The notes below the pieces were generated by a model. It ran no database searches and was not told the origin of the DNA. It saw nothing but the letters and a program-made list of their open reading frames with translations. The position numbers and the translations under genes were made by a program. A stretch of DNA of 64,000 nucleotides from Escherichia phage slur09. Of the stretch, positions 1 to 64,000 are shown one piece after another; the stretch's first letter is position 1, and the number at the start of each line of letters is the position of its first letter. The stretch lies in the sequence record NC_028840.1; one strand, given 5' to 3'.

Positions 1-127
1 CCTATATCTAGGATCCGCCGTTAAAAGAGCCAATGAACTTCGTTTACAATTGCACGGTGAAAATGCTGTTATAGAAACTTTTGATTCTACAAAATCTTTA
101 CCAACTTTAGAGGAACTTAATAAATGA
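1..127 (+). CDS. HNH/AP2-type homing endonuclease, 3' end only (5' end lies outside the window)
   Basis: Frame open from window edge to TGA at 125-127; translation ...RANELRLQLHGENAVIETFDSTKSLPTLEELNK closely matches the C-termini of the HNH genes at 7031-7567 and 63556-64000. Confidence 0.6.
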   Translation, partial: LYLGSAVKRANELRLQLHGENAVIETFDSTKSLPTLEELNK

Positions 128-4340: not shown

Positions 4341-5204
4341 ATGAAAAAAGAATTTAATGTGCATAAAACACTAGTAGTACCTGATGATGTTAACTTATTC
4401 TTTGTTGGGGATATTCATGGATGCAACGATTTACTAGAAGATGCACTACAATTAGCTGGCTATAACGGCAAGAAAGACTGCGTTGTATGCGTAGGGGATT
4501 TAATTGATCGAGGCACGCAGAACCTACAAGTTTTAGCCAAATTCCTGTATAATCCACGCTTTATCAGTGTCCGTGGTAATCATGACCAATTTATGATTGT
4601 GGGAGATTGGGCTAACTGGATGTATAACGGTGGTATGTGGGCCATGAATGAACTAGATGCAGATACCATTAAAAATATTGCTGAAGACATGGCTGAAAAA
4701 ATGCCAGTATTTCTGACTGTATTGCATCGTGGTAAAAAGTATGGTGTTGTTCATGGTGGTGTACCTTTTACGTACAAAGAATGCGGTAACGAAGTAGAAA
4801 CCCCAGTATGGGATAGCCTTATTGCACAAGTAGAAACAGCTAAGGAAGACCCACATGACCATCCTGGATACCATGTTGAGCCATACTTATGGGATCGAGA
4901 TGTAATCCAAGAAATAGGTTTTCACTTAGCTAAAAATGGTGAAGAACACTCACATTTCCAGCGTTATGCAGGGTTTAAAGAGAAATACATGGTAGAAGTA
5001 CCTCCGGTTAATGGAGTAGACTTTGTATTTCATGGGCATACCGGAGTACCTTACCCGATTTTATACCAGAACCGTGTTTACCTAGATACTGGCGGTGTTT
5101 TCAACGGGCAGTTGACGGTTGCGCAGGTTAACGATGAAACTGGCAAAATCACCACATTTACCACAGACAAAAATGATAGCTGCGGTGTACAGAGGATCCT
5201 TTAA
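4341..5204 (+). CDS. Ser/Thr protein phosphatase (calcineurin-like metallophosphoesterase)
   Basis: GDIHGC, GDLIDRG, GNHD, HGG, GHTG phosphoesterase motifs; start taken at ATG 4341 (MKKEF) rather than track start 4329. Confidence 0.75.
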   Translation: MKKEFNVHKTLVVPDDVNLFFVGDIHGCNDLLEDALQLAGYNGKKDCVVCVGDLIDRGTQNLQVLAKFLYNPRFISVRGNHDQFMIVGDWANWMYNGGMWAMNELDADTIKNIAEDMAEKMPVFLTVLHRGKKYGVVHGGVPFTYKECGNEVETPVWDSLIAQVETAKEDPHDHPGYHVEPYLWDRDVIQEIGFHLAKNGEEHSHFQRYAGFKEKYMVEVPPVNGVDFVFHGHTGVPYPILYQNRVYLDTGGVFNGQLTVAQVNDETGKITTFTTDKNDSCGVQRIL

Positions 5205-5491
5205 TGAATGATAGAATGAAAGAAGTACAAGAAGAATTACGAGCAATGCGTATTGATGCCCTTCGTTGGAGGGCATTAGTTAATGCTTTCGTCAAAGGAG
5301 ATACCGGAGTAATATATTCTGGAATAGCAGTCAATTTTTGTTTTAATTCTCCTGCTGAAATAGAGATAGAAACAAGGCTTACTACCTACCTTAATGAGGT
5401 AGACCTTAAGGGAGGAGAGACTCCCGAGGAGTTTAAAACTAGAGTATTAACTACCTGGGTTGATAATTTAATACAAAAAAGGAGTAAGTGA
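5204..5491 (+). CDS. hypothetical protein
   Basis: 95 aa ORF, start overlaps upstream stop. Confidence 0.45.
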   Translation: MNDRMKEVQEELRAMRIDALRWRALVNAFVKGDTGVIYSGIAVNFCFNSPAEIEIETRLTTYLNEVDLKGGETPEEFKTRVLTTWVDNLIQKRSK

Positions 5492-6081
5492 TGAAGGTTA
5501 AATTCTGGTCGGACTTGCACTTAGACCACCCTGGAGCACTACGTTTCCGTCCGTGGTTTAAGAACATGAAAGAGCACGATGAGTATATTCTAGATACTTT
5601 GTCCAAGCATATTGGTAAACGAACAAAACTTATTTTGCTAGGAGATATTGCAGTAGGTCGTGAAGGCCTGGCCAAATTAAAGTCGGTTATCCACAATGTC
5701 CCTAATCAACTCATTATGGGTAATCATGATGCGGAGCGTCAAGGGCTGAGTATTAGGGACTTAGCGGAAGTTTATGACGATATTCAAGCTCTAGGCAAAC
5801 AGACTGGAGGTGGCAAAAAGTTTTGGCTATCTCACTGCCCTTTGCATCCCAATGAACTTCGTGGCAAACTAAATATTCACGGACATGTACATACTACTTC
5901 CCTACGTGATCCACGTTATATTAATGTCTCATTTGAAATGAGTAAAACTCCAATTCCGCTAGAGGATATTGTGTCTGGTAAGTTTACTAGTTATGATAGA
6001 GTAGTTAATTGTACTACCGGCGAAGTATTACAAATAGGGGAAGATGTAGCTGCTGTATTACGTGGCGATATAAATGTCTAA
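5491..6081 (+). CDS. metallophosphoesterase
   Basis: DLHLD, GD, GNHD, GHVH motifs; RBS AAAAGGAG 6 nt upstream of ATG 5491. Confidence 0.65.
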   Translation: MKVKFWSDLHLDHPGALRFRPWFKNMKEHDEYILDTLSKHIGKRTKLILLGDIAVGREGLAKLKSVIHNVPNQLIMGNHDAERQGLSIRDLAEVYDDIQALGKQTGGGKKFWLSHCPLHPNELRGKLNIHGHVHTTSLRDPRYINVSFEMSKTPIPLEDIVSGKFTSYDRVVNCTTGEVLQIGEDVAAVLRGDINV

Positions 6082-6188
6082 GTATATAGCCGAGGCTATT
6101 ATTAAACGAATCATACAAGCGATAGCAATACTTATAATCATTTGTATTACTATTGGCACAGGATTAGGCATTTTAACTAAAAGTTTTA

Positions 6189-6218
6189 TTTGCTAAAATG
6201 CTTAAGTTTCTGTATAAT
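6189..6218 (+). promoter_or_regulatory. strong T5-type early promoter
   Basis: TTGCTA-N18-TATAAT followed by ATAAATT and RBS. Confidence 0.65.
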
Positions 6219-6248
6219 TACTTTATAAATTGATGAGAAGGAATCAAA

Positions 6249-6680
6249 ATGAACAAAGTTGATAAAGCTCTAGTTTTCGCAGCAGCAGATAAGTTTGAAC
6301 AAGTTAAGGCAACTTTCCGAACCTTGTTCCAGTCTTACGTTCAGGATAAGTCTAATCCTATTTCTGAACGCTTGATGGTTTGGGAGTGTCATGCTTGCAA
6401 TGCCCTGCTAATTGCTGATTACCGTAGTGATATAGATAAAGATCTTTGTGAAATCCTTATCCCCAAGGAAGCAGAACGTTATCAGTTAATCTCTTTCCAA
6501 GATTTGGCGGAGCATATCATTCCTGATGATCTTTGGGATAAATACTATGGGGATCCTGAAGATGAAGGAATGACTCCAGAAGCCTGTATTGAGCTGATCT
6601 GCAAAGATCATCCTGAAATTGCGGAGAAATTTGAAAAAGTTTTTGCTTCTGAGTTCTCCGGCGTTGTTAACGATTGGTAA
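6249..6680 (+). CDS. hypothetical acidic protein
   Basis: 143 aa ORF behind promoter 6189-6218. Confidence 0.5.
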   Translation: MNKVDKALVFAAADKFEQVKATFRTLFQSYVQDKSNPISERLMVWECHACNALLIADYRSDIDKDLCEILIPKEAERYQLISFQDLAEHIIPDDLWDKYYGDPEDEGMTPEACIELICKDHPEIAEKFEKVFASEFSGVVNDW

Positions 6681-6697
6681 GTAATTAAAAAATTCAG

Positions 6698-6726
6698 TTG
6701 CTTTAAGCCTTAAAATTCTGTATAAT
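6698..6726 (+). promoter_or_regulatory. strong T5-type early promoter
   Basis: TTGCTT-N17-TATAAT followed by ATAAATT; near-identical architecture to 6189-6218. Confidence 0.65.
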
Positions 6727-6758
6727 AAGTTCATAAATTAATGAGAGAGGAAATTCTA

Positions 6759-7037
6759 ATGGAAAACATGACTAAAGATTTCGACGCCTCTAACCTTACT
6801 AAGACTGAAATGGCCAATGTATTAGCAATTCTCCTCGACATGCAAGGATTTGAGGGGCAACTGATGAAAATGTCTATTCCGGCGATGAAGAAGATGTATG
6901 ATTCTCTTAACAAGAACGCTATGGCCTTTAACTTAGCAAAACAAGAGGCACGCTTTGCTAAGGAGCATCAAGCAGTGGCAGAACGCCGAGCAGCTAGCTT
7001 TGAGCGTGAAGTCAAGCAATTAAAGAAAAAATGCTAA
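6759..7037 (+). CDS. hypothetical protein
   Basis: ORF behind promoter 6698-6726; start chosen at ATG 6759 behind GAGAGAGG (track start 6741). Confidence 0.45.
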   Translation: MENMTKDFDASNLTKTEMANVLAILLDMQGFEGQLMKMSIPAMKKMYDSLNKNAMAFNLAKQEARFAKEHQAVAERRAASFEREVKQLKKKC

Positions 7038-7567
7038 CACAAGAAAGATTAAAAGAGTTATTTGAATACCGCCCGGAAACGGGCGAGTTTATAAGGAAAG
7101 TCAGTAGAGGACGAGGTAAAGCAGGTAGTATTGCTGGTAGTCCTGATAAGGATGGTTATATATTTATTGGGATAAATAGAAAAAGATATGCAGCCCATAG
7201 ATTAGCCTTTTTGTACATGGAGGGGTATATTCCAAATCTAGTACACCACTTAAATAACATAAGAAAAGATAATAGATGGTGTAATTTAAAAGATTGTACG
7301 TCCCAAGAGAATAATCGTAGCAAAATCGCTCAATCTAATTAGGGGTACTTAGGAGTTACCTGGAAAAAAGATCGACAACAATGGAGAGTCCAGGCCAGAA
7401 GCGCCGAAAGCATTACAGTACACGGAGGCTACTTTAGGTACCTAGATTTAGAGTTGGCAGTTCAAAGAGCTAATGAACTACGTTTAGAACTACATGGGCC
7501 TAATGCTGTTATAGAAACTTTTGATCATACAAAACCCTTACCTACTTTAGAGGACTTAAATAAATGA
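7031..7567 (+). pseudogene. HNH/AP2 homing endonuclease interrupted by an in-frame TAG at 7340-7342
   Basis: HNH part (AHRLAFLY...HHLNNIRKDNRWCNL) ends at TAG; same frame continues GYLGVTWKKDRQQWRV...ELHGPNAVIETFDHT to TGA 7565-7567, colinear with the intact paralog at 63556-64000 where Ser occupies the TAG position. Confidence 0.55.
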
Positions 7568-7845
7568 TTACAGAAATTCTCATTGGATTGCTAGTGCTTA
7601 TGACACTAGTAGCGATTGGCGGAGTTATTGGGATTGTGAATGCACGAAAAAGCATGGAAAATATGCTTATTACTAATGATGGACTACACCACCGTTTGCT
7701 AGAGCAAGAGCAGGACATTGAATTAGCACAAAGACGCTCGGATATTCTTAAGGAAAAATTAAATAATATAGAAGCAATAGTTGGGAATAATAAATTACCT
7801 GCTAAAGTAATGCGTACACAGATAATCACGGAGATTAAAAAATGA
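7564..7845 (+). CDS. small membrane protein
   Basis: 93 aa, N-terminal TM helix then coiled-coil-like charged region. Confidence 0.45.
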   Translation: MITEILIGLLVLMTLVAIGGVIGIVNARKSMENMLITNDGLHHRLLEQEQDIELAQRRSDILKEKLNNIEAIVGNNKLPAKVMRTQIITEIKK

Positions 7846-8087
7846 TGATGTTTATTCTAGCGTTTTATTTGATTGTAGTTGGTGTACTGGTTACTAAGTA
7901 CCATACATGGGCACCAAAGAATATAGTTAAGGTAGCACTGTTTGTTATTCCAGTCCCGCTTATTATACTTTCTATGTTACTGGTGATGTTAATCGGTAAA
8001 ATAACAAAAACCGATATTAAACGTATTGCTGATGAATTGCAACAGTCTTGTGATATGGTAGAGGATATTCTTAAAGATGAAGCTTAA
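7842..8087 (+). CDS. small membrane protein
   Basis: 81 aa, two hydrophobic segments; ATGA overlap with upstream gene. Confidence 0.45.
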   Translation: MMMFILAFYLIVVGVLVTKYHTWAPKNIVKVALFVIPVPLIILSMLLVMLIGKITKTDIKRIADELQQSCDMVEDILKDEA

Positions 8088-8403
8088 TTTTAATGAATTA
8101 AATACCTTACATAAGATACTACAGTTTGTGAATAATAATATTAGCATTCCAGATGATACGCTAGAAGTTCTCATGTTAATCGAGAAAAAGGTAGGAATTG
8201 AAATTGAGGACTCCTGGAAACCGCTTTCTGTATTAACACCCCTTAATATGAAAGTGATAGTTAAAAATATCGATACTGGTGAAGAATGTAAGATGATTCG
8301 TAAAGAACTAGCTGATAGCTATTCACCAAAGTCTGTAGTAATGTACCATGATGATACCGCTAAGACTCTACAGACAGCTAATTACGTATGGCGTCTCCCA
8401 TGA
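8077..8403 (+). CDS. hypothetical protein
   Basis: 108 aa ORF. Confidence 0.45.
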   Translation: MKLNFNELNTLHKILQFVNNNISIPDDTLEVLMLIEKKVGIEIEDSWKPLSVLTPLNMKVIVKNIDTGEECKMIRKELADSYSPKSVVMYHDDTAKTLQTANYVWRLP

Positions 8404-8502
8404 TTGATTTAGTACCAATTACTGCGGGGCTAATAGCACTATTAGTGCTTGCAGTTTTTATTATTGTGGAGTAGGCCAAAGTAATAAGGAGACTTAAAAA
8501 CA

Positions 8503-8703
8503 ATGATAAAACGTCTTGTTTATCAGGCACCAAAGATTGTAACTGAGTATTTTGTATTACTGCCTCAGATTGTATTTCTAACAGCATTATTTAATACACT
8601 TTTTCGACATCTAGGAATAACGGAAAATATCTTCTACACTTCTGGGTTACTTCCTTTTATGTACGAAGGCATCATCGTGGCAATCAACGGAGTTCGTAAA
8701 TGA
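8503..8703 (+). CDS. hypothetical protein
   Basis: 66 aa ORF with RBS AAGGAGA upstream. Confidence 0.35.
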   Translation: MIKRLVYQAPKIVTEYFVLLPQIVFLTALFNTLFRHLGITENIFYTSGLLPFMYEGIIVAINGVRK

Positions 8704-9161
8704 CAGCACTACAACAACTACAGAATTACTGGTTTGATAACCAATTTAACGATCTTTTCATCCAGTTGTTTGTCGAAACGAACGGACGCTTCAACTACCG
8801 ATTCTTTAACAAGTTTCACGAAACAAAATTCTCGCATACAGAAATTAATGCAGCGATCCAAGACCTAACTGGTTCTAAAGTAGTTCAATATCGTGAAGTA
8901 GACTTTACACCAGATTGTTTCGGGTTTGAATTGTTTAAGAAAGCATATAAATTTGGTAAGTTTGAGGATGCTCGTCAATGGGTTCATGATTTCTGGTACA
9001 ACACTGATATTGTTCCTAGTCGTGTACTGATTCTTAACTGGATTGCCAAACAACATCCGCCTAAAGCTCAATCGTCCTTCTTACCAACTGATACAGGAAA
9101 CCTCTACCATGACAGAAAAGAAAAATCCATTATTGGAGCAGATGAAGGAGTGGGAGAGTAA
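8700..9161 (+). CDS. hypothetical protein
   Basis: 153 aa ORF, start overlaps upstream stop. Confidence 0.5.
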   Translation: MTALQQLQNYWFDNQFNDLFIQLFVETNGRFNYRFFNKFHETKFSHTEINAAIQDLTGSKVVQYREVDFTPDCFGFELFKKAYKFGKFEDARQWVHDFWYNTDIVPSRVLILNWIAKQHPPKAQSSFLPTDTGNLYHDRKEKSIIGADEGVGE

Positions 9162-9480
9162 TATTGAAACTGGTCTAATAGACGGTGAAGATATTGTCAA
9201 CTCCATGCTAGAAGTAACAGTAGATAACATTAATCCTATTTTGGCTGGAGAAACCTCAGATCTTATAGGACTCTCTAGCACATTTGATTCTTTGGCTAAA
9301 TTAGCTTTAGACGATGAAGAGATAACCAAAGAAGATCTCGCTACAGCTATGAATATGGCTATTAATGCTTACATCGGTAAACGTACTGATGAACTTGGTA
9401 AACAGATCAATAAGCGTGATGCTACGCTAGGTCTTATGGAAACGGCCACTATGTTAAGAAGTGGTAAACAACTTCATTAA
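9142..9480 (+). CDS. hypothetical acidic protein (start uncertain)
   Basis: Track ORF 9043-9480; ATG 9142 has GGAG 5 nt upstream; alternative ATG at 9109. Confidence 0.4.
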   Translation: MKEWESNIETGLIDGEDIVNSMLEVTVDNINPILAGETSDLIGLSSTFDSLAKLALDDEEITKEDLATAMNMAINAYIGKRTDELGKQINKRDATLGLMETATMLRSGKQLH

Positions 9481-9486
9481 TTTTAG

Positions 9487-9517
9487 GAGGCCAGGACTTA
9501 GTTGTTCTGGCCTTTTG
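9487..9517 (+). terminator. rho-independent terminator
   Basis: Hairpin GGCCAG/CTGGCC followed by TTTT. Confidence 0.5.
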
Positions 9518-9540
9518 AGTACATATAAAAGGAGACTATA

Positions 9541-9774
9541 GTGGAAATTGTATTAATTATTCTTGCAATAGCACTATTATTTGCAATCAGCATATCTATT
9601 AAAAAGACTCGTGATCTTAATAGGACTATAGATGATAACAGAAAACTACGTGGTGAAAAGGCTAGGCTTAACCTACAGCATGAAGCTCTGAAGTTATTTG
9701 TAGTTCAGGGCAATAGAAACCATACTCCTGAAGATTTTATTAAACAGCTTAAAAAGCACTTAGGGCTCAAATAA
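9541..9774 (+). CDS. small membrane protein (GTG start)
   Basis: 77 aa, N-terminal TM helix; RBS AAAAGGAG upstream. Confidence 0.4.
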   Translation: MEIVLIILAIALLFAISISIKKTRDLNRTIDDNRKLRGEKARLNLQHEALKLFVVQGNRNHTPEDFIKQLKKHLGLK

Positions 9775-9959
9775 TGGAAACTCTTTTTCTTTTAATGCTC
9801 GTAGGTTCTCTGTTACTAATACTAGCACTTCTACTAATCTGCAACATTCTTAACAACAAGAATCTAGAGTTAAAGTGCGAAAACCAAATCCTTAATCGTG
9901 AACTTAAACAATATAATCTAGCAGCACATAAACTGTTAGACAAACTGGAGAATAAATAA
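9774..9959 (+). CDS. small membrane protein
   Basis: 61 aa, N-terminal TM helix plus coiled coil. Confidence 0.4.
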   Translation: METLFLLMLVGSLLLILALLLICNILNNKNLELKCENQILNRELKQYNLAAHKLLDKLENK

Positions 9960-10570
9960 TGTTTACACAACAACCTATTCAAGTAGTACCAGACCATGAA
10001 CTGAACACATGGGATTATAGCTTTAAAGATTTAACTGCTACTATACAATTCAAATCTATGAAGCTAACATTTGCACACACTGACCTTAGAGCATGTAAAG
10101 ATCTTGAAGGTAAGCTCGAAGATGCTCGTAAGATTTTTGGCACGGCTCGCATCCCGGCTGATAACCTGATTAATGCACTGATCGATGCAGGATACAAACT
10201 AGTGAAGGCTGAGGTTAACCGTCCTAGTACTCCTGTAACTATTAGAGATCCGTGGCAGTCAGGGACAATCTCAATGCTGAGTAACTCCGATAAAAGGTTA
10301 ATGTCGGATATGCACAATGTTCCTTGTGGGGGTGTGGTAAGTAGTACGAAGTCATATAAGTTTGGGGAAGATTACGGCCCTTCTGTACAGTTGAAACATA
10401 CTCAAGAAGCTTTTGAATCTGATATGCGAAGCGTAGCACCTGCGGATGCTGAAGGTTTTAAAAGTCCCCTCTATGTTACTCACTTTAATAATCTTAGACC
10501 TGGGAGTATAAGTGATACTATCCTTGAAGCGTTGGGAGCTGCTATTAATGAAGATAAGAGGGGTAATTAA
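9959..10570 (+). CDS. hypothetical protein
   Basis: 203 aa ORF, RBS GGAGAA. Confidence 0.5.
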   Translation: MFTQQPIQVVPDHELNTWDYSFKDLTATIQFKSMKLTFAHTDLRACKDLEGKLEDARKIFGTARIPADNLINALIDAGYKLVKAEVNRPSTPVTIRDPWQSGTISMLSNSDKRLMSDMHNVPCGGVVSSTKSYKFGEDYGPSVQLKHTQEAFESDMRSVAPADAEGFKSPLYVTHFNNLRPGSISDTILEALGAAINEDKRGN

Positions 10571-11295
10571 TGAGTATAAAAAAGAATTTAGCAGAGATTA
10601 TTAAATTAGCTAGAGCTTGTAATGGGAAATGTGTTTCTCAGCTTAATGAGTTAGAGGCACATGCAGTGGCATTTTGTGCAGAGTTCTATCCTGCATACAT
10701 TAATGCTAGTGGACAACCTAAATATAATAAAGATGCAGAAGAAGTTACGTTAGCTCCTTCTTATATTAGTATACGTCGTCTGATTCAAACTGTTGATCCG
10801 ACTATTAAAGGATTTTCAGCAGATTCATTCCATGTCTTTGCTGATAAAGAACTCCCACATTTTAAAGAAGGAAGTGCAAAGACAGCCCTAGAATGTTATC
10901 CTAAGATTTTGATGATTCCACCTAAGCAATGTAAATACGATCATCTTCCTAGACTTACAAAGAAAGTAGAACCACCTTATTCTTCTCTATCTGAATTAAA
11001 GCTAGGAATTGTATCGACACTTGCGCAGGTTCATCTAAGTATAGTTGACGACTCAACAACATCTAATCCTATTCTAGATGCTGCACACTTTGAAATTTTA
11101 CGTGATCCTGAACAAGCTAGAAAAGTTGCAAAGTCTGTTAAGTTTGATATAGCAACAATTCTTGACACTAAACAAGAAACTAGACCTAGAGGAAGTGTAG
11201 ATTATTCTGCGCTAAACTCCGAGTCATCTTACTTAGCAACATTCCTTTTCATGGCGTCAAAAGGAGTTATTCTAAAGGTTAATAAAGATGGATGA
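10570..11295 (+). CDS. hypothetical protein
   Basis: 241 aa ORF. Confidence 0.5.
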   Translation: MSIKKNLAEIIKLARACNGKCVSQLNELEAHAVAFCAEFYPAYINASGQPKYNKDAEEVTLAPSYISIRRLIQTVDPTIKGFSADSFHVFADKELPHFKEGSAKTALECYPKILMIPPKQCKYDHLPRLTKKVEPPYSSLSELKLGIVSTLAQVHLSIVDDSTTSNPILDAAHFEILRDPEQARKVAKSVKFDIATILDTKQETRPRGSVDYSALNSESSYLATFLFMASKGVILKVNKDG

Positions 11296-12016
11296 TTTAC
11301 GTGCTGAAATTAATAAAAAGCTACGCGAGGAAGCCAGGAGGTTTCCTCTTAAAAACTTTTTGAAGTCAAATGGCTCTACTAATATAACGAAGATTAGGCA
11401 ACTTCACCCTGACTTCCAACAAGAGGCCTTAAACCTTATCTTTATTAGGAAAGCTTTAAAAGTCCAGAAAGAAGAGTATGGGTATGAAAGAGTTAATTAT
11501 AAGACAGCCAATCAGTTAGTAGAGATATGGTGCTATAAGCATAAAGGATACTTTATGCAAACTGCTAGATCTCACCTAGATGGGCACGGTTGTTTACAAT
11601 GTGCTAGAGAAAGCAACCTCAATACACCTATCGAGAAACCGGAAGTAGAAGAAGATGTTCAATTTCCCACATATCTCTATATCTTCTCTAATAAAGATCA
11701 GTCTAGGAAGAAATTAAAGACAAAGATTGGGGTTTCTAGAGAGCCACATCAAAGGTTTAAGAATCTAGAGTATGATAAATTGCGTGTGCCGGGTTTTGAA
11801 GATATGGAAGTATTTGGTATCTACCAGTACAAGAAAGGATCGAAAGAACTTGCTTACAAAATAGAACACCAAGCACATAAATTTTTCGAGAATAAATTTG
11901 CTAATCATTATAAATTCGATGGAGCAAAAGAGATATTCAATATTAAAGCTGTAGAGGCAGAAAAATATCTATTAAGTCAAGGTTGCATAAAAATTTACCC
12001 AACTCCAAACTCATGA
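11288..12016 (+). CDS. T5orf172-like / GIY-YIG-like domain protein with Cys/His cluster
   Basis: 242 aa; CYKHKG...HGCLQCARE cysteine cluster followed by YLYIF...KIGVSREPHQRFKN, which resembles GIY-YIG-like cores. Confidence 0.4.
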   Translation: MDDLRAEINKKLREEARRFPLKNFLKSNGSTNITKIRQLHPDFQQEALNLIFIRKALKVQKEEYGYERVNYKTANQLVEIWCYKHKGYFMQTARSHLDGHGCLQCARESNLNTPIEKPEVEEDVQFPTYLYIFSNKDQSRKKLKTKIGVSREPHQRFKNLEYDKLRVPGFEDMEVFGIYQYKKGSKELAYKIEHQAHKFFENKFANHYKFDGAKEIFNIKAVEAEKYLLSQGCIKIYPTPNS

Positions 12017-12043
12017 CGAAAATTTAAAAGTAACGAAATTTGC

Positions 12044-12073
12044 TTGACATTCGTGAGAATAATGTGTTATAAT
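12044..12073 (+). promoter_or_regulatory. near-consensus sigma70 promoter firing into coding-free repeat region
   Basis: TTGACA-N18-TATAAT immediately after stop of 11288-12016; no ORF with RBS downstream for about 1.7 kb. Confidence 0.55.
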
Positions 12074-12516
12074 AATCTCATAGATTAAAAACATCAACTT
12101 GTTTTTACCTCTAGGCCGTAGATTTACATCATTCCTCGTAGGAAAACACTTGATGACGGTTCTGCTCGCAGGTTCTCGTCAATTGTTCTTCCACACCGAG
12201 ACTTAGGAGGATGTATCAAATCGCACGCGCCTAGAGGGGCTAACTCTCATGAAATGGGGGTATATTTACTTTTAAATAACTAAAAATATTTAAAGGCAAT
12301 ATCTGTGTTCAAGATGATACACCTGTTGCCGCTCTTCTGCTAGGATGGCACAACACTTTTCTAGAAACTCCAGAGTTCTCACGAAATACTCACCCTTTCT
12401 AGGGCGGTTCTCCTAAGTTTCCAGGAACATATACTAGGCGGTTTAATACAGGGCGGTTATTGGGAGGGGGGTTATTTCTATAAGACATTTTTCCAAAACA
12501 CATTTCCAGAAATTAC

Positions 12517-13117
12517 TGTCGGATTTGCACACTGACATAAGTTTAAAAACTGGTCGGATTTGCACAATGACAGGAGTCTCCTAAGTTTTTAGGAACGCTG
12601 AAAATGGCAGCATTATTTCGGGCCGAAGGCCCATGATTGCCTGAGTTTTTAGAGCCACAGAAATTTTCACTTGTCAAGCTATTTTGCCCCATTTAGCTAA
12701 TAAAATTTTACTTTTTCTGCACTTATCTCAAATTAACCCAAATCTTCTCAACTCTTCTCCAAAATCCCCGCAAATCAGGTGCTCCGCACCAAACATGCGC
12801 CCCTCTCGCAGTTCCCCCAAGTTTCTCTCGATCTCTCATCCTCTCCTCAAACCCATACAATCACACACCCTCCAATCGAAGTCACAAAAATCTTGTCGGA
12901 TTCGCACATCTTAATCCTAGAAAAACCGTGTCGGATTTGCACATATCCCACAGGATTCGAACGCAGTTCGTGATTGCTGGAGTTTTTAGGAAAATTCATT
13001 GTCGGATTCGCACACTATAAAAATTTTTCGGGTCGGATTTGCACACTACCAAAAATTGTCGGATTTGCACATACACGCCCACGCGTAATCCAGGGGGGCA
13101 AATGTCGGTTTTGCACA
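12517..13117 (+). repeat. eight direct copies of 15-mer (T/G)GTCGGATT(T/C)GCACA
   Basis: Copies start at 12517, 12552, 12894, 12929, 13000, 13031, 13057, 13103, all same orientation, in loose pairs; region also holds TCCTAA-N4-TTAGGA palindromic motifs at about 12410 and 12580. Confidence 0.85.
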
Positions 13118-13120
13118 AAA

Positions 13121-13142
13121 GCGCAGGGCAATTGCCCTGCGC
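13121..13142. repeat. perfect 22-bp palindrome GCGCAGGGCAATTGCCCTGCGC
   Basis: Read directly; sits right after the last 15-mer copy. Confidence 0.9.
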
Positions 13143-13149
13143 TAAATAC

Positions 13150-13335
13150 GAATGATAATAAGAATCATTCTCATTTAAAAAGCGGAATGAGAATGATAAT
13201 AATTCGCATTTAGAAAGTGAAATGAGAATTATTCAGGAAGTGAAACGATTCTCATTTAAAAAGTGAAATGATTATTAGTTAGATAGTGAAATGCGAATGA
13301 TACTGATTTGCATTCAAGAATGGAAGTGAGAAACA
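13150..13335 (+). repeat. short degenerate tandem repeats of type AGTGAAATGAGAAT
   Basis: About six units (gcggaatgagaatga, agtgaaatgagaatt, agtgaaacgattctc, agtgaaatgattatt, agtgaaatgcgaatg, ggaagtgagaaacac) read by eye. Confidence 0.6.
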
Positions 13336-13347
13336 CTGTTATTTAAG

Positions 13348-13430
13348 TTATCCACAGACTTATTAACAGCACGATTTGACTTGACAGAATCCTAGCCATT
13401 TTGAGGCGTTATTAACAGACTTATCCACAG
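13348..13430 (+). promoter_or_regulatory. two exact DnaA-box 9-mers TTATCCACA
   Basis: 13348-13356 and 13422-13430. Confidence 0.5.
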
Positions 13431-13438
13431 CTTATCCT

Positions 13439-13458
13439 ACTGTATAAATATACAGTAT
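13439..13458. promoter_or_regulatory. LexA-box-like palindrome TACTGTATAAATATACAGTA
   Basis: CTGT-N8-ACAG with AT-only spacer and TA flanks; one spacer difference from my recalled SOS-box consensus TACTGTATATATATACAGTA. Confidence 0.45.
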
Positions 13459-13822
13459 TCCTACGCAGTGAATAATTCTAATATAGCGTTAAAACGTCCT
13501 AGATCGCATTCTAACGCGTTTAATTTTGGTGGGGATACTAAAACACGGGCAAAATTGGAGGAGGCTTGAAAATTAGTTAGCACGCTAACGATCACACAAG
13601 GCGACACGTAACACCCTAACCATTAGCAGGCTAACCATCGCGGGCGCGGTCAAATGAGAATGATTCTCATTTGAGAATTGGGGCACTTCCTGATAGTTGC
13701 GCCCCGTGATTATTATAGTAGTGGGCAACCGTTACGCTTTGCCCACTCCCGCCACTCATCTTGATGCCTAGACTTGCGACGGCGTACTAAAAACCGCTTG
13801 TACCAGTGATTAAACCATCGTT

Positions 13823-14026
13823 TCATAAATCCTCCTCCGGTAGTCGATGCGTGATCTTCTCCTCTTCCCCGTAGGAGTCTACCAAATGCTGATAATAACC
13901 ATCGTGATCATAAATCACTTTATCATACTCGCCACGCTCGACCGCTTGTCGGTTTTCCGGCGTATCAGGCACATAAAAAACGTCTACCGTTGTGGTAGTT
14001 TTGGTTACAACAATTTTATTGCTCAT
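13823..14026 (-). CDS. small acidic protein, unknown function
   Basis: 67 aa ORF, acidic C-terminus (GEEEKITHRLPEEDL). Confidence 0.45.
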   Translation of the reverse strand: MSNKIVVTKTTTTVDVFYVPDTPENRQAVERGEYDKVIYDHDGYYQHLVDSYGEEEKITHRLPEEDL

Positions 14027-14041
14027 ACTAACGCTCCGTTA

Positions 14042-14149
14042 TTAAAAATTACCGTATATTCCCGGCCAAATTTTACTAGTAACATAAGTTACTATTCCTG
14101 CCGTAATTATGCTGTAAACTACTAACAAGATAAACATTAAACCAGACAT
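14042..14149 (-). CDS. 35-aa hydrophobic membrane peptide
   Basis: Hand-translated MSGLMFILLVVYSIITAGIVTYVTSKIWPGIYGNF; RBS GGAGG upstream; below track length cutoff. Confidence 0.4.
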   Translation of the reverse strand: MSGLMFILLVVYSIITAGIVTYVTSKIWPGIYGNF

Positions 14150-14174
14150 AATACCTCCTCGTAAATATATAATC

Positions 14175-14519
14175 TCATTGCGCCACCTTTCGAAACGCTG
14201 TTTCAATACTATCCGCAGTGGATTGAATATACGCGCCTTTCATTATCAGGCGCTCAGTGCATACTTTGCGGAAAATATTAATAAAATCATCTTCATTTTC
14301 TGCAATTAATGCTTCACCCATAACTTGAACGTCACAAGATGCAAAAGTCAAAAATTGAAATGCTAGTTCACGGGCAACGACCGCATTAATTTTATAATGC
14401 GCCTTGCCCTCATAAATATTAATAACGCCCTTATAAGCTGGGGAAAGCTGATTTAAATAGTTTGCTAATAATGCCGGACGGCAATTAGCAACAAAGCGAT
14501 TGCCTTCATAAATAACCAT
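14175..14519 (-). CDS. hypothetical protein
   Basis: 114 aa from ATG 14519, translationally coupled to upstream gene (TAAaATG); track extends to 14558. Confidence 0.45.
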   Translation of the reverse strand: MVIYEGNRFVANCRPALLANYLNQLSPAYKGVINIYEGKAHYKINAVVARELAFQFLTFASCDVQVMGEALIAENEDDFINIFRKVCTERLIMKGAYIQSTADSIETAFRKVAQ

Positions 14520-14520
14520 T

Positions 14521-14733
14521 TTATAGCACCCCACGAAACGCAGCGTAAAAGGTGGCAAAGTGTTTAACCGTTTCAGCGATCACGTTGCCGCGCTTATCAA
14601 ATTTTTTCTCAGTAACACGAAAGGCATTTTTATTACGTGCTACATATTCGATTCTACAATCTTCCCGCTCGAACGTGTTAACATCCACCAGCTTAAAGCC
14701 TTTCGAACGTGCAAGAGAAACGTTGCGGATCAT
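14521..14733 (-). CDS. hypothetical basic protein
   Basis: 70 aa ORF; start immediately after stop of membrane peptide. Confidence 0.45.
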   Translation of the reverse strand: MIRNVSLARSKGFKLVDVNTFEREDCRIEYVARNKNAFRVTEKKFDKRGNVIAETVKHFATFYAAFRGVL

Positions 14734-14735
14734 TT

Positions 14736-14885
14736 TTATTCCCCTTTACTAGTCATGCAGCCCAGCAGATAAGAAAATACAGCGATACCCGCGCCGATAA
14801 TAACCGCGTGAACGCCGAAAGCTATTGCAAATAATGATAAAATAGCGCCCAAGATACCTGCTAGAATAGCTCGAAAAATAACCAT
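14736..14885 (-). CDS. 49-aa hydrophobic membrane peptide
   Basis: Hand-translated MVIFRAILAGILGAILSLFAIAFGVHAVIIGAGIAVFSYLLGCMTSKGE; RBS AGGAGG upstream. Confidence 0.45.
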   Translation of the reverse strand: MVIFRAILAGILGAILSLFAIAFGVHAVIIGAGIAVFSYLLGCMTSKGE

Positions 14886-14934
14886 TTGTGATAGCCTCCT
14901 AGTTATCGGGGGATATAATATCCCCCGCTATTAA

Positions 14935-15165
14935 TTACATTAAAACAATTTTTGCCGCTTGTTTTTTGGTACAGTGTTCCGCTTTCAGGGTATCCAGTAA
15001 AAAGCCAGCCGTTTGCTGATCGATTTTATCAGCGTTATATAGTTCCTGAATGGTATTATAAGTTTTAGCAATGCCGAACTCCTGCACCATTTCATATATG
15101 ACAGCGCGATTAGATACCCAACCTTGAGCGGTAAACAGATGACTAGCAGAAGAATAAGCAACCAT
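14935..15165 (-). CDS. hypothetical protein
   Basis: 76 aa from ATG 15165 behind GGAGGC; track ORF extends to 15243. Confidence 0.4.
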   Translation of the reverse strand: MVAYSSASHLFTAQGWVSNRAVIYEMVQEFGIAKTYNTIQELYNADKIDQQTAGFLLDTLKAEHCTKKQAAKIVLM

Positions 15166-15228
15166 TTTAAGCCTCCAAATTTTTGGGAAAATTTTCAATC
15201 CACCGTTTTGGTGTAAAGGCATTATAAC

Positions 15229-15256
15229 AAAAAAGGCCGCCATAAAAGGCGACCTT
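15229..15256 (-). terminator. rho-independent terminator (minus strand)
   Basis: Hairpin GGTCGCC/GGCGGCC followed by T-run on minus strand. Confidence 0.5.
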
Positions 15257-15270
15257 TACAAAACTTTACA

Positions 15271-15765
15271 TTAAACTACCTGTAAGGATTCAATATTGAA
15301 ACATCGTTTCAATTCGTCATGCAAAACAGCGTATTCATCCCATCGGGTACTATCAGGAATATAAACAAGCTGCTTTAACCGGTTTGCATATATTACCGCT
15401 TTGTTATCAATTATCTCGACGCCACCATGTTTAATAATTAATTTTATGACGGAATTAATAGGATCGCCGCCGTTTACATATGTGCCGGATTTACTTAACT
15501 GATAATGATAAAGGCTTGCATATACGTTTTCATTTTCATACCATTCGCCCGATTCCTCGTCCTCATAACCGTCACTACCAAAACGAGAAGCGTTATCAAT
15601 AGCCATTTCATGAGCGAAAGCGTCCAGATCACAACCAGCGGGAACAAAGTGTTCCTCCGTCCAACCTTCTCCGCAATAACCAGTATGACAATCGACCAAA
15701 ATGATCATATCATGTTTTGCCGTGCTCACTTCTCCCAGTGAGAAGCCATATTTTTCTTCTGGCAT
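15271..15765 (-). CDS. strongly acidic protein, unknown function (anti-restriction candidate, inferred)
   Basis: 164 aa from ATG 15765 behind AGGAGG; about 29 Asp/Glu versus 12 Lys/Arg by hand count. Confidence 0.5.
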   Translation of the reverse strand: MPEEKYGFSLGEVSTAKHDMIILVDCHTGYCGEGWTEEHFVPAGCDLDAFAHEMAIDNASRFGSDGYEDEESGEWYENENVYASLYHYQLSKSGTYVNGGDPINSVIKLIIKHGGVEIIDNKAVIYANRLKQLVYIPDSTRWDEYAVLHDELKRCFNIESLQVV

Positions 15766-15829
15766 AATTAGCCTCCTATTAATTAACAAGGGAATAGTAA
15801 AGCGGGGTAATAATCCCCGCTTAGTATTA

Positions 15830-16822
15830 TTACTCGCTTTCGGTGTTAGTTGTAAAAGTAGAAATATCGATACCTTTTACCATTTCATCAATCATCTCAG
15901 CGATGTTAAAACTTTGTACCATTTCCAGCATTGCCGCTTCCATAGCCGCTCCTGCTACCGCTTTCGCTTTCTGGTTATTTGGGGCGTACTGGTCAACCGC
16001 TACACTCAGCAGGTTAGCGATCACTACTCGACCGATAGGCGTATCAATATAACCTTTAATCATAAATGGCGCTTTTTTAGCCACTACTTTCGTGATTTGA
16101 GTTAGTGCAATTTTACCCGCTTCCAGTTTTGCAGCGTTTACAACAGCGGATTTATTAGCGGCAACGATGTTAGCAATCTTGGTCATGGTGTTTTTTCCTT
16201 TGTTTTCAGTAGTTTGAGTGTTAACGCTTTGAGTGTTAGAATTTACAGTATGTTTTTCTATACTGTCAATAGGCTGATTTTCATCTTTCCAGAACGTAAA
16301 GCCGGCTTCTTCTATCAGATCATTATAAACATACGGGCATAATTCCGACGGTAGCAAAAAATTACCGTTATCATCAAAAGCCATTACAGCCGCAAAACGA
16401 TACCCGTGATAATCTGACTTATTCCACCCAAGTGATAAATAACGCCAAAATGAATCGAGAAAATTTTCTACGTCATAAAGATCTTTATCATAAGCCTCAT
16501 AGTTTTCTATTGTGAAAACTTCTAAGCCCGCCCCAGCATCATAGGCTTTTACTGTATTGCCTTTTACTATGATAAAATCAGCATCCGGCCCCCGACTAGT
16601 AAGCAAGTGGGACTCCTGATTATATAAAACAAGCGTTGCCCCTTGTTTATATAACGGTAGAAAACTATTCATATTATAAGCATCATAATCATCAAAAAAA
16701 TTATGATGAATAGTTTCAATATTGAAAACAAAATGTTTAATGCTGGTTGTCCTGCTACCGTCCAGCAGGTTGCGCAATGCACCTTTTAAAACGGTAGCGT
16801 TATCAGGTTTATAAAGCCTCAT
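15830..16822 (-). CDS. hypothetical protein (largest gene of cassette)
   Basis: 330 aa; RBS GAGGGGGG; N-terminal Tyr/Asp-rich half and Ala/Val/Lys-rich C-terminal half; no recognisable motif. Confidence 0.5.
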   Translation of the reverse strand: MRLYKPDNATVLKGALRNLLDGSRTTSIKHFVFNIETIHHNFFDDYDAYNMNSFLPLYKQGATLVLYNQESHLLTSRGPDADFIIVKGNTVKAYDAGAGLEVFTIENYEAYDKDLYDVENFLDSFWRYLSLGWNKSDYHGYRFAAVMAFDDNGNFLLPSELCPYVYNDLIEEAGFTFWKDENQPIDSIEKHTVNSNTQSVNTQTTENKGKNTMTKIANIVAANKSAVVNAAKLEAGKIALTQITKVVAKKAPFMIKGYIDTPIGRVVIANLLSVAVDQYAPNNQKAKAVAGAAMEAAMLEMVQSFNIAEMIDEMVKGIDISTFTTNTESE

Positions 16823-17086
16823 TTGTTGGCCCCCCTCGTTAATCGGTGAGTGAATGATATAGATATTTGTTCACTAGGGGCAAGAAAAAAGAAAATGTTT
16901 TTTATTCCTTGCCTAGCGCCTATTTTTATGATAGCCGCGCAGCGGTGTAATAAAGAGCAAAACACGGCGAAGCCACCAGGCCGTCGCATTGAGGCTTTGC
17001 TTTAGTATTACCTAACAGCGTTTAGCTCGTTAGAATGCGATTTAGGCCGCTTAAAATTGATTGCAGTCGTTAACACTACCTTTTTA

Positions 17087-17106
17087 CCCTGTATATTTAT
17101 ACAGTA
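17087..17106. promoter_or_regulatory. LexA-box-like palindrome CCCTGTATATTTATACAGTA, upstream of minus-strand cassette
   Basis: Inverted copy of 13439-13458; about 265 bp upstream of the start of 15830-16822. Confidence 0.45.
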
Positions 17107-17114
17107 GGATAACC

Positions 17115-17196
17115 TGTGGATAAGTCTGTGCAAAAGTTCTTATATCGCCGCCTATCATGTCAAGCCAAAAAGTGCTGTGGATAACTTTGTGGATAA
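17115..17196 (-). promoter_or_regulatory. three exact DnaA-box 9-mers (TGTGGATAA on plus strand)
   Basis: 17115-17123, 17176-17184, 17188-17196; further near-matches at 17448-17456 and 17473-17480. Confidence 0.5.
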
Positions 17197-17937
17197 CTTA
17201 AATGATAGTGTTTCTCACTTAGGCTAATGATTTCTTATAGTTATTATTTCTCATTAATTTATATGTATATAATATATTATGTAATAGTTAGTTGGCTAAT
17301 GAGATTTTCCGTGATTAATAGTCTGCTATTAATTCAGGCCGTTACAATCCACCAGCATGACCATCATCCTAGCAATTATTAGTCTGCTATTCTTCCAATA
17401 CACACTAGCAAATAAAAGTCAATTAATTTATTTTATAAAATAAGTAGTTATCCACTGGAAAATAAAAGTCAAGTGGATAACTAGGAAAATTTCATTTTTG
17501 CTTTGGGGATAAGTTATCAACAAGGCTAGAATGCGCCTAAAACGCTCCAGAACGCGATAAAGTTTTAGGCCATCCCATCATAAGGGGATAGGCCGTTTAT
17601 CGCTACCACGAGCTTTTTAGATTTTGTCAAGTAGGGCAAAGCAAATATAAATGAAAAAATTACTTGCCTATCTGCTTTGTTTTGTGGTATTCGCGCGCCC
17701 GTTTCTTTTAATTTTAATGCGCCGTGCCCAGGTCGCCGCACGGTGTCCGGTGGCGTTTGTCTTTACGTTTCTTTACAAAAATAAGGTTGCGCCATTTTCG
17801 GGAATCCCCTATTATTTATCACGTAGGGCGGCAATGACGAACTACACGGCGGGAAGTTTACCGCCACGCTCTTTAAAAATTGGGTATATCTTAAAGCCTA
17901 TCGGCGGTAAACTTATTTATTATAAGGAATCGACGAT

Positions 17938-22013: not shown

Positions 22014-22748
22014 ATGAATAAAGCTATCATTAATTCTTTCCGTGCTTTCCCGCAAATATCCCGCGTCATGATTTGGGATTTAGACGGCACTATCATTAAT
22101 TCTTTCCATCGTGTAGCGCCTTGCTTTGATAGTGAGGGCAATTTAGATTTAAATAAGTATAAAAATGAAGCCTGTAAACATGATTTAATAATGCAAGATA
22201 CCTTGCTACCGCTTGTTGTTTATATGCGTGAGTGTATGAATGATGTAAATACACTAAACATTATTTGCACCGCTCGACTAATGAGCAAATCAGATTATTA
22301 CTTCCTACGCAAACAAGGCTTGCGCGGTCGTGGTAATAGCAATATCCGCGTATTTTCCCGCGATACACTGCATAAATACTTTGAAGCTGATAAGGTTAGC
22401 GAAATATATCACAGCAAAGACGCAGTATATAAAAGTTATTACTTTGAACTATTTAAACAGTTATATCCTAACGCTGATTTTACGATGATTGATGATCATA
22501 AAGGTGTATTAGCGGCGGCGGCATCATACGGATTTAAAACGCTGGACGCTCAAGCTATTAACGATATTCTATCAATCGGTGTTGCAATGATAGGTGAAAC
22601 CTTTATTGATGAATCCCTCGATGATGATAATGATTATCAATTCCTAGCTGACCGCTTAAAGCTATGCTGGGAAGGTATGACCGAGGAAGAACGCGCAGAA
22701 TATAGTTGCAGCCCGCAACAATATATTGAGAAATTAAAAGTTGCGTAA
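22014..22748 (+). CDS. dmp: 5'-deoxyribonucleotidase (HAD-like), Dmp-like
   Basis: 244 aa; HAD motif I VMIWDLDGTII near N-terminus; size matches recalled T5 Dmp. Confidence 0.6.
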   Translation: MNKAIINSFRAFPQISRVMIWDLDGTIINSFHRVAPCFDSEGNLDLNKYKNEACKHDLIMQDTLLPLVVYMRECMNDVNTLNIICTARLMSKSDYYFLRKQGLRGRGNSNIRVFSRDTLHKYFEADKVSEIYHSKDAVYKSYYFELFKQLYPNADFTMIDDHKGVLAAAASYGFKTLDAQAINDILSIGVAMIGETFIDESLDDDNDYQFLADRLKLCWEGMTEEERAEYSCSPQQYIEKLKVA

Positions 22749-56044: not shown

Positions 56045-56504
56045 TTAATAGACTATCATATACTGCATTTGCTACAGTCTCTGCTTCATGTATGGAATCT
56101 GTATATCCATAATGCTTACCTTTAATTTGAACAAAATATCTACCAGTTGAATGTTTTAAGAAGACACCTTTTGGTAATTCTTTATTACTATTCTTGTTTC
56201 TATTCAACTGATTGCGTGACTTAGAAGAGTCTAGTAAATTATCTATGGCATTATTTAATGGATTCCTATCCTTATGGTCAATTTCTTCTGGAATGTACCC
56301 ATACACATATAAGAAAGCTAACTGATGTGCTTTATACCTTTTACTATCAATTCGGATTTCCAATCTGATATAGTTATCAGATACCCGTACTTCCGTCCCT
56401 GCTATGGAGCCTTTCGATACTCTTCCTCTTGAGACTTTCCATCTAAATATACCAGTTAGAGGATCATAGTCTAATAGCTCTTTAAGTCTATCTTGTGTAA
56501 TCAT
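56028..56504 (-). CDS. HNH homing endonuclease
   Basis: 158 aa; YKAHQLAFLYVYGYIPEEIDHKDRNPLNN; same N-terminal LKELxxYxPxTG as other copies. Confidence 0.7.
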   Translation of the reverse strand: MITQDRLKELLDYDPLTGIFRWKVSRGRVSKGSIAGTEVRVSDNYIRLEIRIDSKRYKAHQLAFLYVYGYIPEEIDHKDRNPLNNAIDNLLDSSKSRNQLNRNKNSNKELPKGVFLKHSTGRYFVQIKGKHYGYTDSIHEAETVANAVYDSLLSENTI

Positions 56505-62668: not shown

Positions 62669-63559
62669 TTATACCAAATCTTTAAGCGATTCAGCAACTA
62701 AAATTTCAATACGTTTTGCTAACATATCAATTTCTTCTTTATTTAAGTCACCTGGGTCTTTACCTTCAGGCAGAAGAAAGTTAGCAACTACAGGTGTTAA
62801 ACGCGTTTTTGTACGAATTAGCTTAGCCAGTGCTTGTGCAGCTTTATTACCAGAAGCATCATTATCTAGTAAGATAACAACAACTTTAACACCAGCAATA
62901 ATATACGGACTGAACTTATCTGCAATGTTGTCTGAAGTAAACTGATGTGTACCAAAGCAACAAGAAGCATAGTCTATACCATTATCCTCTAGATTCAGCA
63001 TATCAAAGATACCTTCAACTAGAATAAGAACTGGAGTATTATATCGTACAGGAAAAATTGGCGGTGAAACTTGTTTTGGTTTTACTAGGTATTTAGGAGG
63101 GGCAGAACTGTTTATAGAACGACCCAAAAATAGGATATTGCGTCCAACAGCATCTGTGATTGGGAATACAATTCTGCCTTCCCAGTCTGCTTGGTGTTGG
63201 AAAGCAAAATATTTCTTCAAGGTCTTAGAACTTATACCTCGGAAATCACCTTCGAAAAGGTAAGCAGATTCAGGAATTGCAAGATTCGTAGATCCATTCC
63301 TAATCTCTGAAATCTTTTTACGTACCTGTGCTAGTCTTGGGGACTGTCGGTACTGAGTCTCATTAAAATAATGGTAAATGCTCGGTATACCTTTACCGAA
63401 GCCACAACTCAAGCAGTGCATAATACCTGTTTCAGGATCAATACGCAAACTTGGGTGTTTATCGTCATGATCTGGATTGAGACAACAGATTAAAATATCT
63501 CCACCAGTATCTTTATACTCAATTCCCTTAAGATCAAGTAATTCTGTTATTCGACTCAT
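62669..63559 (-). CDS. DNA primase (zinc-binding, DnaG-like)
   Basis: 296 aa; CLNPDHDDKHPSLRIDPETGIMHCLSCGFGKG zinc ribbon then TOPRIM-like region. Confidence 0.7.
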   Translation of the reverse strand: MSRITELLDLKGIEYKDTGGDILICCLNPDHDDKHPSLRIDPETGIMHCLSCGFGKGIPSIYHYFNETQYRQSPRLAQVRKKISEIRNGSTNLAIPESAYLFEGDFRGISSKTLKKYFAFQHQADWEGRIVFPITDAVGRNILFLGRSINSSAPPKYLVKPKQVSPPIFPVRYNTPVLILVEGIFDMLNLEDNGIDYASCCFGTHQFTSDNIADKFSPYIIAGVKVVVILLDNDASGNKAAQALAKLIRTKTRLTPVVANFLLPEGKDPGDLNKEEIDMLAKRIEILVAESLKDLV

Positions 63560-64000
63560 GAATTTAACTCCTCCAGTGAAGGATAATTAGATGTATCAAA
63601 AATTTCTATAACAGCACGTTCTCCATGTAACTTAGTCCTTAATATATTTGCTGAATTTACAGCTAGCTCTAGCTCTTCATGCTTAAATCTGCCACCATTT
63701 TTAAGAGTGCTATTAGAGTCTCTTACTTGAACTCTCCATCTTTGTTTTTCGGTATCCCAAGCAACTCCCAAATATCCAGACTTACTACATGCGGTTTTAT
63801 TTCTACTATTTTCCTGAGCTGTGGCGTCTCTTAGATTACACCACCTATTATCAAAAGGTATTCTGTTTACATGGTCTACTTTTTTCGGCAATGTATTTTC
63901 CATAAATAGAAAAGCCATCCGATGGGCTTTGTAATCCTTGCCATCTATACCAATAATTATATAACCGTTAGAGTCTTTTCTGGTTATTATACTACCAGCT
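63556..64000 (-). CDS. HNH/AP2 homing endonuclease (5' end outside window)
   Basis: Frame open to window edge; ...DGYIIIGIDGKDYKAHRMAFLFMEN...NRWCNLRDATAQEN...SGYLGVAWDTEKQRWRV; intact paralog of 7031-7567. Confidence 0.7.
   Translation of the reverse strand, partial: AGSIITRKDSNGYIIIGIDGKDYKAHRMAFLFMENTLPKKVDHVNRIPFDNRWCNLRDATAQENSRNKTACSKSGYLGVAWDTEKQRWRVQVRDSNSTLKNGGRFKHEELELAVNSANILRTKLHGERAVIEIFDTSNYPSLEELNS

Follow-up and report, generated by a model that had tools for sequence, protein, structure and literature searches.

Introduction

Homing endonucleases of the I-HmuI-like His-Me finger group (group 2) typically carry modular DNA-binding domains, AP2 among them, and the combination of an HNH_3 motif with an AP2 domain has been described for this group (PMC5714182). 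I-HmuI (structure 1u3e) is of the HNH_3 type, and its nuclease domain is joined to DNA-binding modules of the NUMOD/HTH kind. The same group includes AP2-bearing members as well as the phage T5 endonucleases F-TflI, F-TflII, F-TflIV and P-TflIX/X. AP2 domains are also present in plant AP2/ERF proteins such as AtERF1 (1gcc), WRI1 (7wq5) and TEM1 (7et4/7et5), where a three-stranded sheet packs on a helix. The genes that vary among Tequintavirus genomes include HNH genes (PMC12639943).

Escherichia phage slur09 is a T5-like Tequintavirus, and its nearest phage record is Escherichia phage BB1, with 99.2% identity around the gene described here. We analysed a stretch of 64,000 nucleotides of the slur09 genome (NC_028840.1), referred to below as the window. 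It contains a gene that resembles I-HmuI in its HNH_3 motif and in the joining of a nuclease domain to a modular DNA-binding domain. The slur09 module differs from those of I-HmuI in being an AP2 domain, and one that is untranslated in this phage; the endonuclease role of the gene is predicted from sequence. The phage domain has the same fold as its plant counterparts, but it is fused to a nuclease, whereas the plant domains are parts of transcription factors.

The same locus, with the same two flanking genes, encodes an 'HNH endonuclease motif protein' in phages NBEco001 and RP5 (YP_009856606.1). This protein is 100% identical to that of slur09 if codon 104 of the slur09 gene is read as Ser. 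Intact orthologues are also found in phages NR01, SP01, fp01, VEc33, S130/S131, VAH1, DaisyDussoix, SelmaRatti, STP-SP2 and SP33, and in the relatives the annotation of the gene rests on similarity to T5 P-TflX. The intact orthologues have TCG at codon 104 and encode a two-domain protein of 178 aa, whereas slur09 has TAG at this codon and encodes 103 aa. Members of the same gene or family that are broken shortly past the HNH domain, with the remainder nearly intact, occur in phages BB1 (135 aa), ECOP18 (137 aa plus a 37-aa ORF) and PMBT31 (109 aa). The lesions in these three are +1 or −1 frameshifts; in slur09 a base substitution has created the stop codon.

Results and Discussion

An amber codon interrupts the reading frame

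The endonuclease ORF was read directly from the window. It starts with ATG at 7031 on the plus strand and runs for 103 codons to a TAG at 7340-7342. Beyond the TAG the frame remains open for 74 more codons until a TGA at 7565-7567, giving 179 codons including both stops. An earlier reading of the letters, made without database searches (the sequence-only reading), had described an ORF that stops at this TAG with the same frame continuing to 7567, and direct reading confirmed it. The features of the locus and its paralogues are collected in Table 1.

Table 1. Features of the endonuclease locus and of the paralogous genes (positions in the window)
Feature	Coordinates	Strand	Remarks
Upstream gene, T5.032 homologue	6741..7037	+	Stop overlaps the endonuclease start (ATGCTAA)
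Truncated ORF	7031..7342	+	103 aa; N-terminal region and complete HNH_3 (I-HmuI-type His-Me finger) nuclease motif
In-frame amber TAG, codon 104	7340..7342	+	From TCG (Ser) by C-to-A at 7341; interdomain linker
In-frame remnant, 74 codons and TGA	7343..7567	+	AP2-type DNA-binding domain and C-terminal tail
A6 homopolymer run	7364..7369	+	Longest run noticed by eye in the gene; 22 nt past the TAG position
Downstream gene, T5.030 homologue, membrane protein	7564..7845	+	ATG overlaps the endonuclease TGA (ATGA)
Fourth HNH_3-AP2 paralogue, 3' end	1..127	+	Full 178-aa gene at 9468-10004 of the upstream contig (L027)
Shorter paralogue, 158 aa	56028..56504	-	Between the D11 and D12 genes
HNH_3-AP2 paralogue	63556..64000	-	56% identical; adjoins the primase gene (T5 P-TflX position); window end removes about 30 first codons

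The sequence-only reading also held that the second half of the frame lacks a start of its own. No in-frame start for the AP2 half was present ahead of a TTG at 7454. This TTG, the first in-frame start past the TAG and the sole candidate, opens an ORF of 37 aa that covers just the end of the AP2 helix, so the claim holds. Promoter-like and terminator-like sites for the endonuclease gene alone were also sought, and none rose above chance. Independent expression of the AP2 half was rejected for the lack of a start before the TTG and of a promoter above chance, and translation of positions 7343 to 7567 as part of the protein has presumably ceased. The 103-aa product is identical to SLUR09_00014 (YP_009202060.1) of slur09, and the public record of the phage labels this ORF 'hypothetical protein'.

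Both ends of the endonuclease gene overlap its neighbours (Table 1), and the gene therefore lies within a tightly packed operon. The downstream gene has its own GAGGA Shine-Dalgarno sequence at 7550-7554, 9-10 nt ahead of its ATG. For this reason translation of the T5.030 homologue probably persists, with translational coupling probably lost.

The interrupted frame encodes an HNH_3 nuclease domain and an AP2 domain

The HNH_3 profile (PF13392) matched residues 53-96 over its whole length, with 42.3 bits for the read-through protein and 43.7 bits for the 103-aa product, both of which exceed the gathering cutoff of 24.8 bits. The read-through protein also matched PHROG 99, 'HNH endonuclease', with an E-value of 2e-58. 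Residues H56, H73, N81 and N94, which occupy invariant columns among 34 homologues, are all kept in the slur09 sequence. A profile of this 34-sequence family matched I-HmuI (1u3e) across the beta-beta-alpha-metal motif (positions 36-101; E 9e-6). The N-terminal half is by these comparisons a His-Me finger group 2 (I-HmuI-like) nuclease domain with predicted activity.

The second half had been called AP2-like from the letters alone. As a single sequence it scored 15 bits against Pfam AP2 (PF00847; E 0.03, model positions 2-52 of 54), which does not reach the gathering cutoff of 33.3 bits, and a PDB search with the single sequence returned nothing useful. The family profile was needed, and it matched the AP2 domains of WRI1 (7wq5; E 7e-8) and TEM1 (7et4; E 5e-4) in the PDB, and also Plasmodium ApiAP2 (3igm; E 0.02). 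Many of the homologues hold a precomputed PF00847 hit in addition to PF13392. An AlphaFold model of an intact orthologue (pLDDT 92.1) contains strands at residues 109-112, 117-123 and 129-135 followed by a helix at 137-158. Its best fold matches in the PDB, obtained with Foldseek, were the AP2 domains 7wq5, 1gcc and 7et5, with a target TM-score of 0.75 and a probability of 1.0 for 1gcc. Thus, the label falls below the Pfam threshold for the sequence alone and is upheld by the family profile, the PF00847 hits of the homologues and the modelled fold. Codon 104 falls in the interdomain linker, which is the least confident stretch of the model (pLDDT 69 at residues 91-100).

The TAG is private to slur09

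The sequence-only reading had proposed that orthologous loci in related phages be compared. This was done with 16 orthologues of 95-99% nucleotide identity, i.e. those of 13 named phages, one IMG/VR contig and two metagenome contigs. TCG (Ser) is present at codon 104 in all 16 and TAG in none, and the 178-aa gene is intact in 14; more distant alleles have TCT or TCA at this codon. None of the 29 phage records having this stretch shares the TAG. A megablast search of 50,697 phage records with a 71-nt query centred on the TAG found no exact match, the best hit containing one mismatch. Degenerate-pattern scans of IMG/VR and metagenome contigs likewise recovered TCG alleles only (three IMG/VR hits and two metagenome hits) and no TAG.

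The slur09 gene has just two private substitutions; that at 7258 is synonymous and that at 7341 creates the stop. Because all 16 orthologues have TCG, no record shares the TAG, and the protein with Ser restored is that of NBEco001, the TAG is a derived, private, single C-to-A change at 7341. The AP2 half downstream of the stop has zero private changes, and the lesion is therefore recent. In the orthologues pN/pS was 0.09 over the HNH half and 0.16 over the AP2 half, so that purifying selection acts on both in the relatives. The locus thus has the features of a recent pseudogene, with one disabling lesion set against constrained intact orthologues and no further decay.

A freshly inactivated homing endonuclease was one of two possibilities raised by the sequence-only reading. 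It is borne out by a stop codon that is one step from the TCG of all 16 orthologues and absent from the 29 records, and by an AP2 half that has not decayed. It is highly probable, in our view, that a free-standing homing endonuclease gene of the HNH-AP2 type, part of an early operon in this T5-like phage, was recently knocked out by one nonsense mutation confined to its lineage (Ser104, TCG to TAG). Such an event is of a known kind in a known gene family, and the identical intact allele is already in the databases.

The base call is reproduced by an independent assembly

A C-to-A change outside a homopolymer is an atypical consensus error for high-coverage MiSeq data, and the change at 7341 lies outside any homopolymer. 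This argues against the possibility that the true phage has TCG and that the TAG arose in sequencing or assembly. The slur09 genome was sequenced by MiSeq (2x250) and assembled with SPAdes, and the authors remapped the reads with BWA to correct miscalled bases; their genome announcement is of draft quality, which leaves some room for an error (PMC4698387). Logan contigs of run ERR1039470 were 100.000% identical to positions 5133-17342 (12.2 kb, including the TAG) and 1-2734 of the window. Both assemblies probably derive from one run, and a systematic error common to them or a wild-type minority in the phage population is conceivable, but two different assemblers, SPAdes and Logan, give the same base. 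Moreover, the remaining conserved ORFs of the window are uninterrupted. When the 74 BB1 ORFs of 90 aa or longer that have a match in the window were compared, this gene alone was truly interrupted. General assembly sloppiness was also considered and rejected, as the four other flagged ORFs were alternative-frame or opposite-strand ORFs inside annotated genes. Since the independent Logan assembly agrees and the authors remapped their reads, a sense codon in the raw reads is unlikely, and we regard an artefact as highly improbable.

No CUA anticodon was found among the tRNAs scanned

The other possibility raised by the sequence-only reading was that the full-length protein is made only with amber suppression. 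Suppression by a phage-encoded CUA tRNA or by the host, or else leaky termination, could give rise to such a protein, and its expression would be conditional. Several features speak for this possibility. T5-like phages have more than 20 tRNA genes; by anticodon arithmetic, Gln-CUG, Lys-CUU, Tyr-GUA and Ser-UGA are each one base away from CUA; and the half of the gene downstream of the stop is still perfectly intact.

No tRNA gene was detected by ARAGORN or Rfam in the 64-kb window, because the T5-type tRNA cluster adjoins the window start on the upstream side. We therefore scanned the 9.9 kb directly upstream in the same genome, taken from run ERR1039470. Default ARAGORN settings identified 10 tRNAs in this segment, none with a CUA anticodon. 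Relaxing the threshold (-ps80) raised the count to 13, with four weaker calls set aside, by adding Ser-UGA, Ser-GGA and Gly-UCC; again, CUA was not among them. The segment covers part of the slur09 tRNA cluster, with about ten further tRNA genes beyond it, which favours the suppression reading to that extent. The full set of 22 tRNAs of BB1 also lacks a CUA anticodon, and a literature search for suppressor tRNAs in T5-like phages found nothing relevant.

Additional observations argue against suppression. Programmed read-through would require conservation of the in-frame stop among relatives; the TAG is present in slur09 only and every relative has a sense codon, so the stop is neither conserved nor programmed. 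TAG also terminates other ORFs in the window, e.g. those at 56028-56504 and 62313-62642. Neither a read-through signal nor a stimulatory structure was noticed when the sequence was read by eye. The isolation host MG1655 is not known to carry an amber suppressor. Amber suppression is thus strongly disfavoured, and continued production of the full-length protein by this route seems to us exceedingly improbable. Of the two readings originally offered, inactivation was retained on the strength of the private TAG and the constrained relatives, and suppression was set aside for want of a CUA tRNA among those scanned, the non-conserved stop and the host. The isolation host is E. coli K-12 MG1655, on which slur09 was plaque-purified and grown (PMC4698387).

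The tRNA scan also revealed a local difference between slur09 and BB1. In a comparison of the slur09 upstream contig (L027 1249-1924) with BB1 (L018 8300-9480), a 286-nt segment of BB1 that contains tRNA-Ser(UGA) is replaced in slur09 by a segment of about 100 nt. The latter encodes a different Ser(UGA)-like tRNA (L027 1464-1558) that was missed by default ARAGORN. Weak tRNA-like elements corresponding to Ser-GGA (L027 1361-1451) and Gly-UCC (2629-2704) were detected only with relaxed thresholds or in the Rfam E-value mode.

The endonuclease gene occupies a variable slot

The joined flanking genes, from the T5.032 homologue to the T5.030 homologue, measure about 1105 nt when the endonuclease gene is present. 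The corresponding length is 601 nt in phages GEC_vB_N5 and SE8, which lack the gene and have a 22-nt spacer in its place. In phage T5 the joined flanks measure 715 nt, and the slot is filled by T5.031, a 54-aa membrane ORF. Many other phages contain one of several diverged HNH-AP2 alleles in the slot. Presence or absence at a fixed site between conserved neighbours is the pattern by which a free-standing homing endonuclease gene is recognised in genomes, and it agrees with the variability of HNH genes noted for Tequintavirus (PMC12639943).

The slot was compared across window positions 6940-7640, GEC_vB_N5 (L028 500-700) and T5 (L029 480-800). The HNH-AP2 alleles that occupy it are mosaic; the first 20 and last 40 codons are near-identical and the middles have diverged. 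Phage VAH1 (MK373792.1) has the gene at 6316-6852 and a second, partial match at about 119337-119408, near the right end. The partial match is annotated as a 48-aa ORF (VAH1_00212) and contains one extra base relative to the first copy. Divergence of a terminal-repeat copy or an error of assembly may account for this partial match.

Truncated copies of the gene in other phages

The same gene is broken three different ways in three close records, those of slur09, BB1 and ECOP18. Gap columns at 7363/7364 in the alignment placed the BB1 and ECOP18 lesions in the A6 run, with an extra A (+1) in BB1 (L001 3935-4472) and a missing one (−1) in ECOP18 (L019 401-936); these are independent frameshifts. 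Both records annotate split or shortened CDSs for the gene. Real slippage and sequencing errors are both frequent in homopolymers, and the two frameshifts could be sequencing errors rather than real decay. Other alleles are truncated in PMBT31 (P0012) and in contigs P0023 and P0070. Five of the six truncated copies, that of slur09 included, break at about codons 104-117; the slur09 stop is at codon 104 and four of the five remaining copies (BB1, ECOP18, PMBT31 and P0023) break at about codons 109-117. The P0070 copy is truncated inside the HNH domain.

This narrow zone raises the possibility that truncation is selected and that the 103-aa HNH-only product is functional or favoured, e.g. as a less specific or less toxic nuclease or as a dominant modulator of the three paralogous enzymes. 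The survival of the complete HNH_3 motif ahead of the TAG is in keeping with this idea, as is the concentration of most breaks in codons 104-117. However, the BB1 and ECOP18 breaks are in the A6 run, where mutation or sequencing bias alone predicts clustering, and the PMBT31 and P0023 breaks appear to be at G/A runs too, as judged by eye from the DNA of the slot alleles. Furthermore, the P0070 copy breaks within the HNH domain, most relatives by far retain the full two-domain gene, on which purifying selection acts, and the TAG occurs in one genome only. There are 94 single-base routes to a stop codon in the intact gene, such that a hit at codon 104 carries no positional information. Selection for truncation is accordingly a doubtful explanation, to which we give a small probability.

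A broader version of this idea would account for the breaks of slur09, BB1, ECOP18, PMBT31 and P0023 within codons 104-117 together. It supposes either that selection has repeatedly turned the site-specific homing enzyme of T5-like phages into a lone HNH peptide serving another function, or that low-level read-through or slippage tunes dosage, and we consider it very unlikely. Because of the homopolymer sites, the P0070 break inside the HNH domain and the 94 routes to a stop, the clustering was taken as mutational bias.

Probable consequences of the nonsense mutation

If the gene was inactivated by the nonsense mutation, as we favour, translation would stop in the interdomain linker, after the nuclease domain and before the AP2 module. 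The resulting 103-aa peptide would keep the HNH motif without the target-specificity module. Site-specific cutting and homing would presumably be lost even though this product retains the whole catalytic motif, because the AP2 module is absent and the role of DNA-binding modules in this family is established (PMC5714182). The 74 downstream codons would be an untranslated remnant in which decay has not yet begun. Since the phage was plaque-purified and propagated on MG1655, a non-suppressing host, the gene is probably dispensable for lytic growth. The mutation may represent one step in the usual cycle of invasion, fixation and decay of selfish endonuclease genes.

The 103-aa ORF of slur09 is better annotated as a nonsense-disrupted HNH-AP2 homing endonuclease pseudogene. 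It shows the opening step in the decay of a homing endonuclease in clean and datable form, with a single mutation, without secondary damage and with an identical allele intact in a sister phage. Together, slur09 and NBEco001 form a natural isogenic pair that could be used as a control for homing into an empty site of the GEC_vB_N5 type. Outside annotation the consequence is slight; the locus provides no sign that T5-like phages reassign stop codons or encode suppressors, and reflects the ordinary decay of a selfish, probably dispensable gene rather than an altered genetic code.

Paralogues and genome layout

The slur09 genome contains four paralogous HNH_3(-AP2) endonuclease genes (Table 1). 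The sequence-only reading had cited the copy at 63556-64000 as an intact paralogue with Ser at the position of the amber codon. The Ser is there (TCT, 63780-63778, at the position homologous to codon 104), whereas 'intact' holds for the visible part only; the gene lies on the minus strand and is read from 63999 to 63556. This paralogue and the one at 56028-56504 are absent in BB1, where D6 and the primase gene abut. The D11/D12 and primase-adjoining paralogues are presence/absence polymorphisms too.

Two other genes may be further mobile nuclease genes. A T5orf172/MUG113 (GIY-YIG-related) gene lies among the tRNA genes of the upstream contig (L027 261-734), and a DUF723 ORF with a weak T5orf172 match is located at 11288-12016 of the window. 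From its start just past the tRNA cluster (dNMP kinase gene at 124), the window proceeds to the pre-early genes (A1 at 19511-21175, dmp at 22014-22748), the structural genes and then the replication genes on the minus strand. This gene order implies that the assembly is permuted and its terminal repeat collapsed.
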